A DNA stretch of 38,795 nucleotides, from UHGV virus genome UHGV-0423091, one strand, 5' to 3'. The translations under genes were made by a program, and so were the position numbers. Positions 1-38,795 of this stretch are shown here, piece after piece. Below the pieces are notes generated by a model, which made no database searches, was not told the DNA's origin, and worked only from the letters and a program-made list of their open reading frames with translations. Within the stretch, counting starts at the first letter, position 1. Each line of letters opens with the position of its first letter. This DNA comes from a virus.

Positions 1-428
1 CCCTGTAGCGAAGTTACCGCCGCAGCACCTCCGACCGGACCACCGAGCGTTGTACCGACAACAGCCTGCCCGCCCATATCGAACAACCCATAAAGGACCT
101 GCCCGGCGGTTCCGGTTGTCGCGGCATCAGGCGTCAGCCGCTTAACCTGCTGCTCTGCTAGTTTTCTCTGCTCAGCAATGTATGAAACTGAAGTGTCATT
201 GAACGAGGTGTTTTCGTTAACAAACTGAGCAATCGGGGATACGATTTTATCCATCCCTGCCCATAGCAACTGATCTGGCTTTGCCACCAGCCCGGAGTAC
301 AAACCAGACAATGCCGCTCCTACAGCATTGTCGAAAAAACCAATATCGCTGTTAAATCCAGCTGGATTTGATGCAGCTTCGTCAAGCTGCTGATTCTGGT
401 TTACTGGATTAAGGCCAAAGTAACTCAT
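1..428 (-). CDS. virion structural/internal protein, partial (3-prime end cut by window start)
   Basis: ATG at 426-428 overlaps the stop of the upstream gene (ATGA); frame stays open to position 1; lies in the late structural operon. Confidence 0.5.
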   Translation of the reverse strand, partial: MSYFGLNPVNQNQQLDEAASNPAGFNSDIGFFDNAVGAALSGLYSGLVAKPDQLLWAGMDKIVSPIAQFVNENTSFNDTSVSYIAEQRKLAEQQVKRLTPDAATTGTAGQVLYGLFDMGGQAVVGTTLGGPVGGAAAVTSLQ

Positions 429-12551: not shown

Positions 12552-12628
12552 GTGGCATTAGCTCAGTTGGACAGAGCAACCGCCTTCTAAGCGGTTGGTC
12601 GCAGGTTCGAATCCTGCATGCCACGCCA
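12552..12628 (+). tRNA. tRNA-Arg (anticodon TCT, reads AGA/AGG), argU-like
   Basis: Hand-folded cloverleaf: 7-bp acceptor GTGGCAT/ATGCCAC, D-arm GCTC...GAGC, anticodon stem ACCGC/GCGGT with loop CTTCTAA, T-arm GCAGG-TTCGAAT-CCTGC, discriminator G and encoded CCA. Confidence 0.85.
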
Positions 12629-12715: not shown

Positions 12716-12791
12716 AGCAGGACGCCATTGCGATGACTTCATGCTGTAAACCCGTGCAGCCACGGAAGGCATAACTCATTGCTTCCAGTTC

Positions 12792-12815
12792 GCCCGGTTC
12801 GCCGGGCATTTTTTT
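12792..12815 (+). terminator. second intrinsic terminator (GCCCGG-UUCG-CCGGGC plus T7)
   Basis: 6-bp GC stem with UUCG tetraloop followed by seven T. Confidence 0.55.
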
Positions 12816-12831
12816 GCTTGATGACCGCAAA

Positions 12832-12849
12832 TTACCTTAAAGGTATAAT
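12832..12849. promoter_or_regulatory. operator-like site TTACC-ttaaa-GGTAt overlapping a perfect TATAAT (12844-12849) just upstream of the moron gene
   Basis: One-mismatch copy of the dispersed palindrome; consensus -10 hexamer. Confidence 0.4.
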
Positions 12850-12850
12850 C

Positions 12851-13669
12851 ATGAAAAACTTCAAGGTAATTAGCATGTTTGAATCGTTCAAAGAGCTGTT
12901 TTTATCTACTGCCAATACTGCCGTGAATCGAGCCAAAAACCCTGTGCTTGGTGCTTTTGTTATGTCCTGGTGCGCCTTCAACTGGAAATCAATTCTTTAT
13001 CTATTTTTTAGCAAATCAAACATAATAGATAAAATTTCATATATCTCAGATAACAGCACATGGAAAACTGTTATGTTTTATCCATGCTTATCTGTAATTG
13101 CTATCTGCTGCCTATTACCATGGGTAAACAATATCATTAACGTATGGCAAGCAAAGCCTCTTGATAATAATGACTCAATCGAAAATCACCTGAAGGCAAG
13201 AAAAATCCAGCGTGAAACAAGACTGCAGAGGTTATTGGCTAAAAAAGATGTTACATACGACAAAGTTAAGACTGGCGCGGAAAAAGACATCCAAGAGATG
13301 AAAGAAGAGATTATTCGATCAAAGAATAGTATGGGGGAATTGACTGCCGAGTTGAAAGCTAAAGATGACGAATTGAGATCCGCCAGTGCTCAGTTAGCAG
13401 CTCTAAATCATTCATTAAAAGAGATATCGGAAACTCTTGGAAGAATGAATGAGGCATATAAGACCCTCCAAAATGATTTCGACGAATACAAACTCAAATA
13501 CCCTGAAAAATCTCAAATAAAAAGCCTTGAACTTGGCAACGGCCAAACAATTAGCAACTTTTTGGAGCAACACAACTTATCCGGATTAAAATCTGGTAAG
13601 CCAAACGTTTTTAATAACTTTGGTGTTCTATCTGGATTATCAGGTTTCGAGGATAAAAATAAAGACTAA
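12851..13669 (+). CDS. moron: membrane plus coiled-coil protein, 272 aa; candidate superinfection-exclusion or abortive-infection factor
   Basis: Track ORF trimmed to ATG 12851; two predicted transmembrane segments then a long charged helical region; AT-rich; antisense to and converging on the terminase gene. Confidence 0.65.
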   Translation: MKNFKVISMFESFKELFLSTANTAVNRAKNPVLGAFVMSWCAFNWKSILYLFFSKSNIIDKISYISDNSTWKTVMFYPCLSVIAICCLLPWVNNIINVWQAKPLDNNDSIENHLKARKIQRETRLQRLLAKKDVTYDKVKTGAEKDIQEMKEEIIRSKNSMGELTAELKAKDDELRSASAQLAALNHSLKEISETLGRMNEAYKTLQNDFDEYKLKYPEKSQIKSLELGNGQTISNFLEQHNLSGLKSGKPNVFNNFGVLSGLSGFEDKNKD

Positions 13670-15141
13670 GCATATGGATCGTACTCGGTAAGCGCCTTGC
13701 CTTGCTGGTTCTGCTGCCCGGGAAGTCGCAGGCGCTTTGACACCGGGAAAGCAAACGTCAGCAGTAGCGCATCGCCTTTACCAGGCGAACGCCCAAGTCG
13801 TTCTTTGATATCTTCCTTCGGTTCGATAACGATTTTACCGTCCACGCGAACTTTGTACTCTGCCGCCGACAGATCGTCCGCTGTTTCCTGGTCATCCAGC
13901 ATCCCGCCCAACCTCAGCCATGTCTTGCATGAGTTGAACATCTCCCCGCGCTTGTTGAGCATCTGAGGGTCAGTTGACGCACCACCGAACGGAACAAGTT
14001 GCCATGTGCGCCCCCAGCCGTCACCGATTGACTTCAGACCGGTTCCGTAACCGAAGTCGATGAACACCGCGTCAGCCTGATACTGGTCTTCAAAGTCAGC
14101 GATACGCTTCGCCATAATCAGATCGTCAGTGGTCTTGTTGCCAGTCCATAGCACCTTACTATGCAACCCCTGCCGCAGGTATATCACCGCGTCATCAACG
14201 CCTGAATATGCCGGGTCAACACCGATTATCACCGGAGCATGTGCCACCTGCGCAGCGGTTACCACCCGTTTCATTGCCTCATCAGTAAGACCGGTAGGGA
14301 TAAACTGCAATTCAGATGCATCAGGGAATATGCCGCGCACACGGATTTTAACGAAGTCGCTGTCTTCCCCGTAGTCATCAACCCATTTCTGCAACTGCTG
14401 TTTGTTAGTACCTTCCACCGTCCGGCTGTCAATCTGCGCAGTTTTCCAGCGGTGTTTGTATTTGCGGAAACATTCGCGAAAACGCCCGGTATTACGTGTA
14501 GGGTTTCCGAACGCCACCCAGATAATCTCAGTGTCTTCGTCCGTAAGCGCACCCTCAGCAACTTCCCACACCAGATCCGCAATGTTCGACGCTTCATCGA
14601 ATACCACGATGATGCGTTTGCGCTCGTTGTGTAGTCCGGCGAATGCCTCAGTGTTGTGCTCAGACCAGGGGATTGCGTCAGCTCGCCACCGCTTGTCGTG
14701 CCCAGGATCATTGCTGTACATCGCGGTAGCGGTACAGGTAAACCAGTCTTTCGTGATAGCAAGGTTCGACCACTTGATAATTTCCGGCCAGGTCTTCGTT
14801 CGTAGCTGGTTGTCGGTGTTGGCGGTCACCACGACCTTACAATCCTCGCAAGTGGACATGCCCCAGTTGATCAGCATTGAGATGAATGCGGATTTACCAA
14901 TACCGTGACCAGAAGCACGTGCCAGCATAAGCGGCTGATAACGCGTCTCTGGATTCTGCAGGTGATCACGTATCTCTCGGAACGCATCGGCCTGCCACTG
15001 ACGTGGGCCGGTAGCATGTGCCAGTTCAGTCCCCTCTTCCCCCCACGGGAACGCATAGAGGGCATAGCCAAGCGGATCGTGAGTGAACCCTGCAATATCC
15101 TCGATTAACTGCTCTTCAGGAGATAACGCTGTATCTGTCAC
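13666..15141 (-). CDS. terminase large subunit, 491 aa
   Basis: Walker A-like ARASGHGIGKS near the N-terminus; size; directly downstream of the small subunit. Confidence 0.9.
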   Translation of the reverse strand: MTDTALSPEEQLIEDIAGFTHDPLGYALYAFPWGEEGTELAHATGPRQWQADAFREIRDHLQNPETRYQPLMLARASGHGIGKSAFISMLINWGMSTCEDCKVVVTANTDNQLRTKTWPEIIKWSNLAITKDWFTCTATAMYSNDPGHDKRWRADAIPWSEHNTEAFAGLHNERKRIIVVFDEASNIADLVWEVAEGALTDEDTEIIWVAFGNPTRNTGRFRECFRKYKHRWKTAQIDSRTVEGTNKQQLQKWVDDYGEDSDFVKIRVRGIFPDASELQFIPTGLTDEAMKRVVTAAQVAHAPVIIGVDPAYSGVDDAVIYLRQGLHSKVLWTGNKTTDDLIMAKRIADFEDQYQADAVFIDFGYGTGLKSIGDGWGRTWQLVPFGGASTDPQMLNKRGEMFNSCKTWLRLGGMLDDQETADDLSAAEYKVRVDGKIVIEPKEDIKERLGRSPGKGDALLLTFAFPVSKRLRLPGQQNQQGKALTEYDPYA

Positions 15142-15734
15142 TGATTACCATCCTGACGTTCTTTGAGTCGCTTCCTGGCTGCTGCTATGCGATCAGCAAT
15201 TGTCACATTCACATTAACATCCAGACGTTCTTTGAACGCGTTGACATCAACATGCTTACCAATCAGCTCAAGGTTCTTCACCTTGTCAGGCCATTTAATT
15301 TTTTTGAGGATTGTCTCTATCGAATCCTCGTTCATGTTCATGATGGTCGATGACAAATCAAAGCCACTAAGCGTAGTGCGCCAGATTTTCGGCCACTCAC
15401 GGATTGGTTTAAGGCTCCCATCGTCGTTGAGGATGTCGATCACGTCCATCTGGTCGATCTGCACCAGGCGCATGAGAACGTAATCAGCACTGACGCGCAT
15501 TCGTTTGTTGCGCTCCTCCATCAACTCGGCAATCCGTTTTTGAATGCGTTCATCGCGCATCATGACACTGGCTTTAACTGCCGCTGTATTTGGGGAGAAT
15601 CCTGCGTTAATCGCTGCCTGAGTCTGGTTTTCAGGCGTTTTGATGTATGACTGGCAATAAGCCTCCTGCATTGCTGTTAGTGGCTTAAATTGCGTTGATT
15701 TGCGTTTATAGGTTTTAGGTTCAGCAGGCATCAT
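15138..15734 (-). CDS. terminase small subunit, about 198 aa
   Basis: Track ORF 15138..15812 trimmed to tandem ATGs at 15734/15731, because a terminator hairpin lies inside the track's N-terminal extension. Confidence 0.65.
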   Translation of the reverse strand: MMPAEPKTYKRKSTQFKPLTAMQEAYCQSYIKTPENQTQAAINAGFSPNTAAVKASVMMRDERIQKRIAELMEERNKRMRVSADYVLMRLVQIDQMDVIDILNDDGSLKPIREWPKIWRTTLSGFDLSSTIMNMNEDSIETILKKIKWPDKVKNLELIGKHVDVNAFKERLDVNVNVTIADRIAAARKRLKERQDGNQ

Positions 15735-15766
15735 AACCACCGTGGTAATAGTTACCGTTATGGTAA
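15734..15766. promoter_or_regulatory. two tandem operator-like sites (TaACC-accgt-GGTAA and TTACC-gttat-GGTAA) overlapping the terminase small subunit start and SD
   Basis: Dispersed palindrome copies at 15734-15748 and 15752-15766. Confidence 0.45.
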
Positions 15767-15775
15767 TAGTACCAT

Positions 15776-15803
15776 GCAAAATAAAGCCGCCATAGTTGGC
15801 GGC
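15776..15803 (-). terminator. intrinsic terminator in the late-operon leader (GCCGCC-6 nt-GGCGGC then TTTATTTTG on the minus strand)
   Basis: 6-bp GC stem followed by a T-rich tract on the coding strand, about 45 nt upstream of the terminase start. Confidence 0.55.
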
Positions 15804-15852
15804 AGTATTCAAAACCCATCAAATTCATCATGCATAATCTACTCGTGACATG

Positions 15853-16191
15853 TCACACTATTAATTTCGTTTCATGCCAGCCTTTAGTCACCCAGCATTG
15901 CGAGTCACCATTACACGGGCATGAATTAACTGGAACTCTCTCGCCGCACTTACCGCAACATTTTCTGCTGATCGATTTTATACGCCCGCGCACGCGTGCA
16001 TCATCCTGGCGGATCAGTAACGCTATATACTCACCAAATTCGTAAGGCGCACGCCCGGGGCGACGCGTGGCACAGTTACGCTCCAGCATTTCAATTTCCT
16101 GAGCATCAAGCACAATTTCCAGCTTACGCACACCAGATGCAGCTTGTCTGGCTCTCTGAGCGGCTTTGCGCTCTGCTGCTGATTTAGCCAT
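15853..16191 (-). CDS. Cys-rich (zinc-ribbon-like) small protein, 112 aa; candidate late-gene regulator
   Basis: C-terminal CCGKCGERVPVNSCPCNGDSQCW cluster; last early-operon gene before the late leader. Confidence 0.5.
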   Translation of the reverse strand: MAKSAAERKAAQRARQAASGVRKLEIVLDAQEIEMLERNCATRRPGRAPYEFGEYIALLIRQDDARVRGRIKSISRKCCGKCGERVPVNSCPCNGDSQCWVTKGWHETKLIV

Positions 16192-32265: not shown

Positions 32266-32532
32266 ATTTACATCGCACTCCTCTTGTGCCATAGTAATCG
32301 GGCACTGGCAAAATCCAGTGCCGGGATTGGCGTTCCGGATTACTACAGAGGCACATATGCCGCATAAGCGGTTTTTTTATGTGTAAAGCGCACCTATTCT
32401 ATGGTGGGCTGTGTGGGGGCACCGAAAGGTGCGCCGGGTTCCTTTGTAGCCGGTTACGCCAACCCTGCACAGTTCACCACCAACCGATTGGCGTCGGTAG
32501 TGGTGATTAACCTAACTACAAAGGTGATCACT

Positions 32533-33219
32533 ATGACTGCTAACGTAACCCCATCTGTTTTTCATTTTGAATCAGAAGCAACCATTCGAGCCATTGTTAT
32601 TGATGGAAATCCTTGGTTTGTTGCCAAAGACGTTATTAAAGCTCTTCAACTGACAAACCCCACTATGTCAATAAAATCTCTTGATGATGATGAAAGGGCT
32701 AAATTTAACTTAGGCCGTCAAGGCGAAACCAATATTATCAACGAGTCAGGCCTCTACACACTGATCCTCCGCTGCCGCGACGCAGTGACACCAGGCACTA
32801 TCCCCTACCGCTTTCGTAAATGGGTTACAGGTGAGGTTCTTCCTCAGATCCGCCGCACCGGAAGTTACATTAAAAACTCGCTCCCGCAGGAAGAACGCAT
32901 AAAGATGGTTGCCGACCAAGTAGCCAACGCCACGGCGTCAGCAGTGATGCAGGCAATGAAGATAGAGAACAAAACCTACAGTGCACCACTGAAGCCCGGC
33001 TACCGCAGCCTGATTCATTCGCCGTCTGGTGTTCTCGGCCTGACGGAGAACTCACTGCTGATGAATTTGCTGAACCAGTTACAGGAAGACGGGCATGACG
33101 TATCGGGCGCGGCGGCGGAGCTGACCACCATGTTCTGCTACATCGTCGGTGTGAGCAAATGCCTGCGTGATATCCAGACGCACGCGGAGTACATCAACGA
33201 CAAAGCAGGGTTCTTCTGA
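32533..33219 (+). CDS. antirepressor, Bro-N domain family, 228 aa
   Basis: Track ORF 32401..33219 trimmed to ATG 32533 (AAGGTG SD); N-terminal Bro-N-like segment IRAIVIDGNPWFVAKDV...LYTLILRC. Confidence 0.7.
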   Translation: MTANVTPSVFHFESEATIRAIVIDGNPWFVAKDVIKALQLTNPTMSIKSLDDDERAKFNLGRQGETNIINESGLYTLILRCRDAVTPGTIPYRFRKWVTGEVLPQIRRTGSYIKNSLPQEERIKMVADQVANATASAVMQAMKIENKTYSAPLKPGYRSLIHSPSGVLGLTENSLLMNLLNQLQEDGHDVSGAAAELTTMFCYIVGVSKCLRDIQTHAEYINDKAGFF

Positions 33220-34174: not shown

Positions 34175-34255
34175 TAGTTTTTTATGGACGAAACAAAAGT
34201 CAGTGCTACACTCATTGACGCCACATTGAGGTGGCTTATAGATGGAAATTTCACA

Positions 34256-34417
34256 ATGAAAAAAGCATTTGCTGCACTGTTCGTTTTGTTGTCTCTGGTA
34301 GCTTCAACTCAGGCCTTTGCCGGTCGTTGTCAGCACGACAGCGATACTGCCGCTGACGGCTCCCGCTGCGGTGGGCGTTCTGCGGATTCCCGCCCGGGCG
34401 GCGGTGGCATTCGTTAA
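34256..34417 (+). CDS. small secreted peptide precursor, 53 aa (signal peptide plus 31-aa mature peptide with two Cys)
   Basis: Internal ATG of track ORF 34184..34417; MKKAFAALFVLLSLVASTQAFA signal with AxA-like cleavage site; followed by a terminator hairpin. Confidence 0.4.
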   Translation: MKKAFAALFVLLSLVASTQAFAGRCQHDSDTAADGSRCGGRSADSRPGGGGIR

Positions 34418-34440
34418 AAACAAGGCCGCGAAAGCGGCCT
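34414..34440 (-). terminator. intrinsic terminator ending the late structural operon (also closes the convergent plus-strand module)
   Basis: AGGCCGC-GAAA-GCGGCCT followed on the minus strand by TGTTTTTAA. Confidence 0.55.
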
Positions 34441-34448
34441 GTGACATG

Positions 34449-34745
34449 TCACGTTCCTTTTCTGAATGATAGCCGTTCGAAAAATGATGACATTCCACCG
34501 CAGACAATAGCAAAGATGATCCCACCAAAGAAGAGAAGGCCAGCCTGCCACCACTCCCACCGCCATACATCCACAGCACCAACCATACCAACAATCGCTC
34601 CAACAAACGGAATATAACTCACGATGAAAGCAATGGTGGCTGCAATTATCCAGTGCAATCCCCACCATGATTCAAGCCCAGCCATAATTGCTGCCAACTG
34701 AAAAAGGCCAACGACGATATAAACAATGAATCCTATCGCTTGCAT
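34449..34745 (-). CDS. small integral membrane protein, 98 aa, last gene of the late operon
   Basis: Three hydrophobic segments rich in Gly/Ala/Ile/Trp. Confidence 0.55.
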   Translation of the reverse strand: MQAIGFIVYIVVGLFQLAAIMAGLESWWGLHWIIAATIAFIVSYIPFVGAIVGMVGAVDVWRWEWWQAGLLFFGGIIFAIVCGGMSSFFERLSFRKGT

Positions 34746-37420: not shown

Positions 37421-38795
37421 TTAACCTCTCAAGAAACACGCCACAGCGACATCAAACAGGCTGGAATCCTGTATTGCCTGCTCACTTTCCCTGTTCGCTT
37501 CATCCAGTACTTCACGCGCGCTGCGCGATTGTGGATTACCATCATCATCCAGCACGGTGATTATCATGTCAGGTGATTCAAGCAGCGAGTCTTCAGCTAT
37601 GCGCAGATCAATATCTCCTGCCTGATCTGACATCATTTTTTGTTCTGCCTGTTGCAATATTTTATCAGCCTCAAAAGGAGCTACTTCGTCTGGCGTCCTG
37701 ACCTCTGCTGTTTTATAGAATGAAACAGCCTGAGCATTAAGTTCACTTTCTGCCTGCTGTCTCCGAGCCAGTTCTGCTCGAGCTTCAAAAAACTGACCGC
37801 CAGGCTCGTGCGGTGCCAACGCGTTACGGGAAAATTCCAGGCGTTCTTGTGCCTGCCGGATTCGTTGATCAATATCGCGAAGTCTGGCCTGTTTATCTGA
37901 TCGAGCACGAGACAAAGCTTTACCGCTACCGGTTGGCTCTTCTGCAAGAATTTGTGCACGCTGTTCAGTGAGATTTTCAATAATTCGTTGGCTATTAGCG
38001 ATTTCCGACTGGTAAACCTGTCTATCGCCACGCGGCAAAAGCTGCGCGGCCTGTTCTTCAAGCAACCGATTTTCTATAGCGCGCGCCGTTACTCCATCAT
38101 CTACAGATGACAGAGCCTCATTAACTGCCTGAGACAGCAGACTCTTGCGCCCAGGAATTTCACTGAAAGATGCAGACTCAACAATGCTGGCAACGTCTAC
38201 AGGTCTCCCCTGGCTAACATCAGACATGGCTTTTCGCAGAGCCTGAATGTGAGAATTGCGCGAAAGCACGTTGATCGGCACGCCGGGAGCAATATCAATT
38301 TCAGCATGATGAGCGGCATTCGCCGCCAGTGCAGCATCGACATCAACTGGTGAAAAATTTGGTGCGCTTGTAGACTCGCCGCGAGAGTTAATAAATCTGC
38401 CGACACCACCAAACGCCACTCCAAGAACAGCATCAATAGCAATTGCCTGTCGATCCAACACATCATACTGATTAGCCATTTCGCTATAGCCACCATCACG
38501 AAGCGTTTTTGCAGTAAGCCCACGCTGTGCCATACCGAACGCAATATTTGTACCTGCGGCATAGGCAATATCTGGCGTTGCACGTACTGCTGTTGCTGCA
38601 GCGCGTCGCACTGAACTTTCACCCGTCCGCGCAAGCTGAGACGCCACACCTTCCGCCAGCGCACCACCAGCACGTAACCCGAGGCTCATAGGGATCAGTG
38701 TTCCGGCACCAGCAGTAATACCCTGCACTAATCCCGCTTCCTGCGCCGTCCTGAAATCAACACCCTGTGCTGTCAGCCGTTCAAACTCAGAAAAA
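37421..38795 (-). CDS. virion protein, at least 435 aa; reading frame remains open to the window end (possibly 5-prime partial)
   Basis: Track start is GTG 38728 with AGGAAG SD, but no in-frame stop occurs between 38729 and 38795, so the true start may lie outside the window. Confidence 0.5.
   Translation of the reverse strand, partial: FSEFERLTAQGVDFRTAQEAGLVQGITAGAGTLIPMSLGLRAGGALAEGVASQLARTGESSVRRAAATAVRATPDIAYAAGTNIAFGMAQRGLTAKTLRDGGYSEMANQYDVLDRQAIAIDAVLGVAFGGVGRFINSRGESTSAPNFSPVDVDAALAANAAHHAEIDIAPGVPINVLSRNSHIQALRKAMSDVSQGRPVDVASIVESASFSEIPGRKSLLSQAVNEALSSVDDGVTARAIENRLLEEQAAQLLPRGDRQVYQSEIANSQRIIENLTEQRAQILAEEPTGSGKALSRARSDKQARLRDIDQRIRQAQERLEFSRNALAPHEPGGQFFEARAELARRQQAESELNAQAVSFYKTAEVRTPDEVAPFEADKILQQAEQKMMSDQAGDIDLRIAEDSLLESPDMIITVLDDDGNPQSRSAREVLDEANRESEQAIQDSSLFDVAVACFLRG

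Follow-up and report, generated by a model that had tools for sequence, protein, structure and literature searches.

A conserved palindrome at gene ends that accompanies a candidate ribbon-helix-helix regulator in epsilon15-like and other enterobacterial phages

The 12-bp palindrome GTGACATGTCAC, which occurs exactly twice in a viral genome of 38,795 nucleotides (UHGV-0423091; this whole stretch of DNA is called the window below), belongs to a genuine motif that is conserved among phages, specific in its spacing, linked to one gene family and oriented with respect to intrinsic terminators. On comparative grounds, it looks like the DNA half of an undescribed regulator-operator pair that marks operon boundaries in many enterobacterial prophages. 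The explanation that we favour, and consider fairly likely to be right, is that the 14-bp site YGTGACATGTCACR is the operator of a dimeric 112-aa protein and serves as a boundary element that sets transcription across operon ends. We infer both the binding of this candidate protein and its effect on transcription.

Results

The window represents an epsilon15/phiV10-like podophage (Uetakevirus) whose genome is circularly permuted and, with respect to the phiV10 record, reverse-complemented. The homolog of phiV10 p19/epsilon15 gp16 is split over the two window ends (37421-38795 plus 1 to about 428, minus strand), which indicates that the genome, of about 38.8 kb, is complete and circularly permuted. 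Its late (virion-gene) operon lies on the minus strand, running from about 15734 to 1 and then from 38795 to 34449. The first gene of this operon encodes the small terminase (15138-15734, minus strand; Pfam Terminase_2, E = 1.4e-29), the start at 15734 being deduced from alignment to the epsilon15 start, while the last one encodes a small, hydrophobic protein of 98 aa (34449-34745, minus strand; PHROG 3075, E = 2e-53). A convincing sigma-70 promoter was not found upstream of the window's late operon.

An exact search of the full window located the 12-mer at 15845-15856 (site 1, which reads cGTGACATGTCACa with its Y/R flanks) and at 34441-34452 (site 2, tGTGACATGTCACg); neither copy is assigned a strand. 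Site 1 separates the end of the early-right operon from the late operon and overlaps the TGA of the candidate regulator gene, and site 2 overlaps the TGA of the last late-operon gene. At both sites the TGA stops of the minus-strand open reading frames fall on motif positions 9-11 (plus strand), in the same register. A search of the whole window for degenerate copies with up to two mismatches gave one extra match, located in a coding region and consistent with chance. The 12-mer had no copies in 100 dinucleotide-preserving shuffles of the window; palindromic 12-mers as a class numbered 10 against 9.4 expected, and a repeated palindromic 12-mer of any kind arose in 1.3% of 5000 shuffles. Judged from the window alone, the pair is thus suggestive, rather than decisive, of a non-chance origin.

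Each site is followed on the minus strand by an intrinsic terminator. The terminator of site 1 (15776-15803, minus strand; GCCGCCAACTATGGCGGC followed by TTTATTTT, with the stem at 15803-15786) is about 40 nt away and has the small terminase gene next downstream; its hairpin is also present in epsilon15, SPN1S, Tyrion and several prophages. The terminator of site 2 (34413-34440, minus strand; AGGCCGCTTTCGCGGCCT followed by TGTTTTTAAC) ends the late operon, and its stem (34440-34423, then TGTTTTT) begins 0-1 nt downstream of the motif. This is the dominant hairpin in folding and an annotated terminator in the phiV10 record. The original prediction had described identical 12-mers at these two positions, the second next to the terminator that ends the late operon; both points were confirmed, with no third copy in the window and with the minus-strand stem directly abutting site 2. 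From the other side, a plus-strand antirepressor operon, comprising isrK and C4 RNAs, an Ant protein and three small genes, converges on site 2.

Several other features were observed around the two sites. In the gap between site 1 and its terminator there is an 8-codon minus-strand open reading frame (15809-15835; ATG CAT GAT GAA TTT GAT GGG TTT TGA, encoding MHDEFDGF), which is kept as M-x-DEFDGF with synonymous changes in several prophages (loci L090, L092, L094 and L097). Leader-peptide attenuation through this frame was considered and set aside as less probable, because the frame is most simply read as the leftover C-terminus of a 70-85 aa gene (ending in ..YDEFDGL or ..DDEFKLI) that other prophages have downstream of the regulator gene and ahead of the small terminase gene. 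Two direct repeats, GGTA(A)CTATTACC, occupy about 15738-15771 (minus strand) in the gap between the terminator and the small terminase start, and their equivalent in the epsilon15 record is annotated as a 'repressor' protein_bind site (positions 12..27). An unrelated 12-bp palindrome, CCGCCCGGGCGG, was also seen at 34390-34401, 40 bp from site 2, within the last plus-strand gene (34184-34417).

We then compared both sites with the equivalent positions in related phages, the check originally proposed for the 12-mer, and the outcome was strongly positive. The exact 12-mer is present at both positions in epsilon15, SPN1S and Tyrion, which are Salmonella and Enterobacter phages with about 80% or less DNA identity; in phiV10, site 2 is exact and site 1 carries one mismatch (GTGACATGTTAC). 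The intergenic flanks have diverged between the window and these relatives while the 12-mer has stayed intact. Moreover, the gene adjoining site 2 is unrelated in phiV10/SPN1S and again in Tyrion, with the motif and the terminator retained. The stop codon overlaps the site 2 motif only in the window and epsilon15, and lies 1-7 nt upstream of it in phiV10, SPN1S and Tyrion. Because the position of the stop varies in this way, its overlap with the motif is incidental, and the conserved unit is the motif plus the terminator. The stop-codon overlap at the same relative position, as originally described, therefore holds for this window and fails as a conserved property.

Epsilon15, SPN1S, Tyrion, phiV10 and many E. 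coli prophages have a third exact copy, which follows the large terminase gene at a depth of about 2.2-2.7 kb in the late region; on one side of this copy is the stop of a moron (accessory gene) encoded on the opposite strand, and on the other side is the moron's own terminator. The window differs from its relatives at this place: they have a different moron with the third motif copy and a terminator, and the third copy is absent from the window because a different, 296-aa gene fills its place. This late-region insert of the window, on the opposite strand after the large terminase gene, was observed to hold a tRNA (12552-12625, plus strand, 73 bits) beside the 296-aa gene (12779-13669, plus strand; PHROG 4780). 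The third copy in the late region of the relatives means that bracketing of the late operon is not the rule; this part of the original prediction, which had the pair bracketing the late region, did not generalise, as the early-operon copies of N15 and ZF40 described below also show. In the five Uetakevirus genomes, all copies of the motif are 5' of an intrinsic terminator. The phiV10 record begins within the motif, and a genome end or cos site was considered for this reason and rejected, since the record was simply opened after the stop of the last gene.

Beyond the Uetakevirus genomes, the motif tracks one gene family. Its member in the window is the candidate regulator gene at 15853-16191 (minus strand), which encodes a 112-aa protein assigned to PHROG 536 ('transcriptional regulator', E = 1.7e-54) and is homologous to epsilon15 gp49, phiV10 p55, N15 gp46 and ZF40 gp22. 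The protein has 726 homologous protein clusters, and the range of the family covers Enterobacterales as well as N15-like, ZF40-like, Yersinia, Vibrio and Aeromonas phages. Among close IMG/VR relatives, 75 of 79 carry the exact motif at the regulator stop, and these relatives show two alternative downstream sequences whose divergence starts immediately after the motif. A profile-based scan, with one genome per species, gave 70 usable loci with homologs 39-86% identical, from Citrobacter, Klebsiella, Pantoea, Erwinia, Xenorhabdus, Providencia, Proteus, Rahnella, Yersinia and others. The pattern GTGAC-NN-GTCAC was found at -18 to +7 nt from the regulator stop in 42 of these 70 loci; it overlapped a TGA in 29 of the 42 and followed TAA, TAG or TGA after 5-7 nt in 11. 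Because the motif both overlaps and trails the different stop codons, it is not accounted for by protein coding. Across the 1.315 Mb of DNA around the 70 homologs, GTGAC-N2-GTCAC had 89 matches versus 1.2 expected (75-fold), 70 of them being the exact AT-centred 12-mer, and spacers of 0, 1, 3, 4, 5 and 6 gave 0-3 matches each in the same DNA.

More distant homologs and control loci were also compared. In N15, GTGACTGGTCAC overlaps the stop of gp46 (35% identity), and this genome has three GTGAC(TG/CA)GTCAC copies overall. The myophage ZF40 contains three exact copies, one of which is 2 nt (tt) past the gp22 stop, with the other two in a CII-like gene and an early-left gene. In both of these unrelated phages, the motif is located in early operons. 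The homolog in Vibrio phage K233 (32% identity) is accompanied by GTGACACGTCAC about 225 nt downstream. As controls, 80 NinB-anchored lambdoid IMG/VR loci, which are probably redundant E. coli prophages, were used: the 78 that are devoid of the regulator gene (1.19 Mb) had one N2 match and zero exact copies, and one with the complete regulator gene had two exact copies. The lambda and Kapi1 genomes had no copies. The motif is annotated in none of the records for epsilon15, phiV10, SPN1S, Tyrion, N15 and ZF40; a full-text literature search for the 12-mer and its 10-mer core returned nothing relevant, and neither did a literature search on ribbon-helix-helix, zinc and prophage terms. Separately, we observed that the stop of a distant homolog in Aeromonas phage 85AhydR10PP (locus L164, about 1518-1532) carries aTGACATGgCAC, a motif with two mismatches in the same register, in which TGA-C-ATG forms a stop/start junction with the next gene. 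This hints that the motif and translational-coupling signals can overlap.

The consensus derived from 98 unique contexts is YGTGACATGTCACR (YGTGAC-AT-GTCACR), a short site with two-fold symmetry, as a palindromic operator has. The half-sites GTGAC and GTCAC were fixed by the search pattern, so their invariance is not independent evidence. The two positions outside the pattern are informative: position 0 is C or T in 96% and position 13 is A or G in 96%. Of the flank pairs, 41 are complementary and 54 are not, a pairing no commoner than chance. Such independent variation fits a dimer reading two half-sites on duplex DNA and not an extended hairpin stem. The central dinucleotide is variable, with AT far more frequent than GC, AC, CT, AG, GT and TG. 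Folded as RNA, the 12-mer gives a stem of only 4 bp, closed by a CAUG loop, at -1.2 kcal/mol, which shuffles equal; the possibility that the 12-mer is itself an intrinsic terminator was rejected in view of this weak hairpin, the missing T tract and the true terminators downstream. The consensus sites of CRP and FNR are TGTGA-N6-TCACA and TTGAT-N4-ATCAA, respectively. Read directly in the sequence, the GTGAC half-sites of the motif are 2 bp apart, which excludes a CRP or FNR site and bears out the misfit of spacing pointed out at the start.

The placement of the motif relative to terminators and genes was examined in the unique contexts. A terminator-like hairpin with a T tract is present within 90 nt in 32 of 100 contexts, and in 31 of these 32 the motif precedes the hairpin when the terminated strand is read 5' to 3', at a distance of 0-53 nt. 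This asymmetry may be partly a by-product of the motif sitting right after stop codons. About two thirds of the contexts have no detectable terminator nearby, indicating that a terminator-linked role is not the whole story. Copies of the exact 12-mer inside genes are always in the frame xGT GAC ATG TCA Cxx (..D-M-S..), and they are fixed at the nucleotide level while the neighbouring codons vary. One class of these lies near the 3' end of CII-like activator genes (L107, L113, L120, L121, L123, L126, L131, L135, L136, L148 and ZF40 gp12, L159 7622), and another lies in a 107-aa early-left gene (L096, L099, L100, L103, L104, L109 and ZF40 gp08, L159 5125). Further copies are intercistronic, before ribosome-binding sites, or just upstream of LexA-box promoters. 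With regard to the latter, six loci (L086, L087, L091, L095, L103 and L104) were seen to have, downstream of the regulator gene, a TTGAC -35 hexamer within about 6 nt of the motif; the promoter after the motif has a consensus LexA box (TACTGT-N8-ACAGTA) and drives an 85-aa or UmuD-like gene, which points to insertion of an SOS-controlled moron in the gap from the regulator gene to the small terminase gene.

The 112-aa protein is the candidate binder because of its genetic linkage to the motif and the resemblance of its predicted fold to DNA-binding domains. Its predicted layout starts with a basic helix at the N-terminus, followed by a core similar to a ribbon-helix-helix (about residues 20-67) and a C-terminus rich in Cys (CGKCG-x8-CPC-x5-C), and its model resembles ribbon-helix-helix DNA binders. 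Family searches against Pfam and NCBIfam gave no match for this protein, and sequence searches of the PDB, with the single sequence as well as with a profile, found no relatives. The NinX gene is upstream of the regulator gene, which is thus preceded by nin-like genes. Some co-variation between the protein and the site was seen: the centre is invariably GC in the Yersinia clade, whose predicted beta-strand is INEIRARLE; N15, with the strand TRRDWVLE, has TG; and the main clade, with [RT]K[LI]EL.LD, has mostly AT. A Providencia clade, despite its divergent beta-strand, has copies elsewhere in the locus that are exact and AT-centred, which makes the co-variation partial and weakens the argument from it.

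Discussion

Several explanations other than a phage-encoded dimeric binder were weighed. A chance repeat of a palindromic 12-mer is hardly credible. Its rate within the window alone is not extreme given the number of features that could have been noticed, but both positions are conserved in four other Uetakevirus genomes, the enrichment is large and spacing-specific, and the controls are empty, so that chance is already refuted by the comparative sequence data. The original prediction that the pair is unlikely to be accidental is hence supported by the conservation at both positions in relatives and by the enrichment linked to the regulator gene, and its suggestion of a binding element for a dimeric regulator is the best reading of the comparative evidence. 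Recognition by a host nucleoid protein, MatP or SlmA, with the phage using or titrating that host protein, is improbable. MatP, the organiser of the E. coli Ter macrodomain, is a ribbon-helix-helix protein, and SlmA is a TetR-family protein whose site, GTGAGTACTCAC, is a 12-bp perfect palindrome. The half-sites of the phage motif are those of the MatP site matS (GTGACRNYGTCAC), and its length and outer four bases (GTGA....TCAC) are those of the SlmA site. The matS site is 13 bp long, GTGAC[AG]N[TC]GTCAC (PMC3603311, PMC3116907). The window copies, at 12 bp, are one base shorter, and the same 1.3 Mb that has 89 matches at the strict N2 spacing has 2 at the matS spacing, N3, for which reason matS was rejected; the 112-aa protein was likewise rejected as a MatP homolog, its similarity to MatP being not significant. 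The SlmA site agrees with the phage motif at 8 of 12 positions, and the four central ones, which are invariant or near-invariant in the phage motif, differ (CATG versus GTAC); in addition, the phage motif, unlike the SlmA site, is tied to the presence of a phage gene. A host-factor site should persist without that gene, whereas the motif is missing from the lambdoid prophage loci devoid of it (1.19 Mb), which come from the same hosts, and in most loci the site adjoins the stop of the phage gene. True matS sites are reported to be avoided by prophages (PMC3603311), which also counts against a host protein.

That the motif acts as RNA is unlikely as well. As a 3' untranslated hairpin before the terminator hairpin, it could affect termination, RNA stability or an RNA-binding factor, and this would suit the transcription of the motif ahead of the terminator in 31 of 32 contexts, as well as the 4-bp stem and CAUG loop beside the terminator hairpin in both window contexts; on the other hand, the hairpin is no better than those of shuffles, the stem bases are invariant with no co-variation, the Y and R flanks show no preferential pairing, and many copies are in coding regions or terminator-free contexts, on either strand. 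Ribbon-helix-helix domains, moreover, are DNA binders. We give equally little credence to a recombination linker at cassette or moron boundaries, operating by microhomology exchange or as a crossover site with a central 2-bp overlap, with the regulator gene as one of the bounded cassettes. Homology breakpoints do fall 1-2 nt from the motif, the two downstream contexts split right after GTGACATGTCACGA, BLAST matches to relatives begin at window positions 34395-34422, the third copy bounds the moron after the large terminase gene, and the site 2 gene has been swapped among the window, phiV10/SPN1S and Tyrion with motif and terminator unchanged. However, any conserved regulatory site at a gene boundary would mimic a breakpoint, known phage recombination systems, and the sites of serine or tyrosine recombinases, involve longer sequences than 14 bp, and the dependence on one DNA-binding-like gene together with the conserved in-gene copies is better explained by protein recognition. 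A promoter-related role, in which GTGACA would be a -35-like hexamer of a late promoter or an activator site and the regulator would be lambda Q-like, appears very unlikely. A promoter scan at site 1 returned GTGACA-18-CATGAT on the minus strand, GTGACA-17-TAAATT can be picked out by eye in epsilon15, and the regulator gene, after nin-like genes, occupies the place of Q in lambdoid phages; nevertheless, the scan score is matched by shuffles, the element found by the scan is not conserved, and at sites 2 and 3, as in many prophages, a promoter would not fit because the terminator stem begins 0-4 nt past the motif. A Q-family antiterminator was also rejected on two other grounds, namely that Pfam, NCBIfam and PHROGs searches gave no Q-family match and that N15 and ZF40 encode a separate Q-like protein in addition to the regulator homolog.

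In the operator reading that we prefer, the 12-mer would be the core of the 14-bp site YGTGACATGTCACR, composed of two YGTGACA half-sites and recognised as double-stranded DNA by a dimer of the small protein encoded beside site 1, with its ribbon-helix-helix and Cys-rich parts. Gene and site occur jointly in many otherwise unrelated phages of Enterobacterales, with one copy nearly always at the 3' end of the regulator's own gene and one or two single copies at other gene ends. The sites in epsilon15-like phages are situated in the 3' untranslated stretch before terminators, at the ends of the early-right operon, the moron and the virion-gene operon, and the bound protein may act just behind a polymerase approaching the terminator, or in its path. 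Regarding the sign of the effect, we slightly favour a roadblock that would reinforce termination and block antisense or untimely read-through. A roadblock could account for all three Uetakevirus sites, where read-through would otherwise transcribe a convergent gene in antisense or enter the late operon too early, and it would also be a negative feedback at the regulator's own stop codon. Conversely, the bound protein may help polymerase past the adjacent terminator and on into the late and tail-spike/lysis genes; such an effect could explain how late, tail-spike and lysis genes are expressed with neither Q nor N, while the moron site would be left unexplained. As a broader and more tentative idea, which we consider possible though doubtful, this may be a widespread, previously unrecognised phage system in which a ribbon-helix-helix plus zinc-type protein, bound to single 14-bp operators that resemble matS less one base and lie directly 5' of intrinsic terminators, switches read-through across operon boundaries on or off. 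To our knowledge, Uetakevirus genomes have no recognisable Q, N or late sigma factor or activator, and in epsilon15-like phages the same protein could be the missing early-to-late switch.

The operator reading was also set against known systems. Ribbon-helix-helix repressors usually act at promoters, often on tandem sites; compared with these, the single operators at 3' gene ends are atypical, which counts against the operator reading. With P22 Arc and Mnt, CopG, MetJ and antitoxins, the phage system would share a small dimer, a predicted beta-strand followed by two helices and a 12-14 bp palindrome beside the gene. The operators of these known regulators overlap promoters, are usually at the 5' gene end and often bind two dimers, whereas the phage sites are single, at 3' ends and typically just before terminators, and the protein has an extra Cys-rich C-terminal domain. 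The likeness to lambda Q lies in the last early-right gene, the terminator and late operon downstream, the candidate site just after the gene and the Cys-rich (zinc-type) motif; the two differ in that there is no sequence or family relation, apparently no recognisable strong promoter around the site, and there are extra copies at operon ends. The transcriptional roadblocks formed by LacI, CodY and CcpA within transcription units resemble what we propose, a DNA-bound dimer in a transcribed region placed so as to stop or pause RNA polymerase. We know of no described arrangement that systematically combines a roadblock site with an intrinsic terminator immediately downstream.

Should the protein modulate termination while bound to DNA just behind the terminating polymerase, this would be a mode distinct from Q, N, put RNA and simple promoter repression. 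An orphan 'transcriptional regulator' family is now linked to a precise DNA site, which gives a directly testable regulator-operator pair in, among others, the epsilon15-like podophages (Uetakevirus), which include serotype-converting phages of Salmonella and of E. coli O157. The motif is also of practical use in annotating prophages, as a mark of operon and moron boundaries. MatP/matS and the phage system have in common the same inverted GTGAC[A/G] half-sites, a binder of the ribbon-helix-helix type (for the phage, by prediction) and single copies that are dispersed over the replicon and not clustered at promoters. This resemblance raises the question of phage and host DNA-binding specificities separated by one base of spacing, and the near-identity of the half-sites could mean interference with host MatP or deliberate evasion of it.

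A minor observation concerns the antirepressor operon that converges on site 2. Rfam matches place an isrK Hfq-binding RNA at 32302-32378 (plus strand, 71 bits) and a C4 antisense RNA at 32397-32484 (plus strand, 84 bits), directly upstream of, and overlapping the start of, the Ant-type antirepressor gene (32401-33219, plus strand), an isrK/C4/Ant module in the style of the RNA-controlled antirepressors of P1, N15 and Gifsy.
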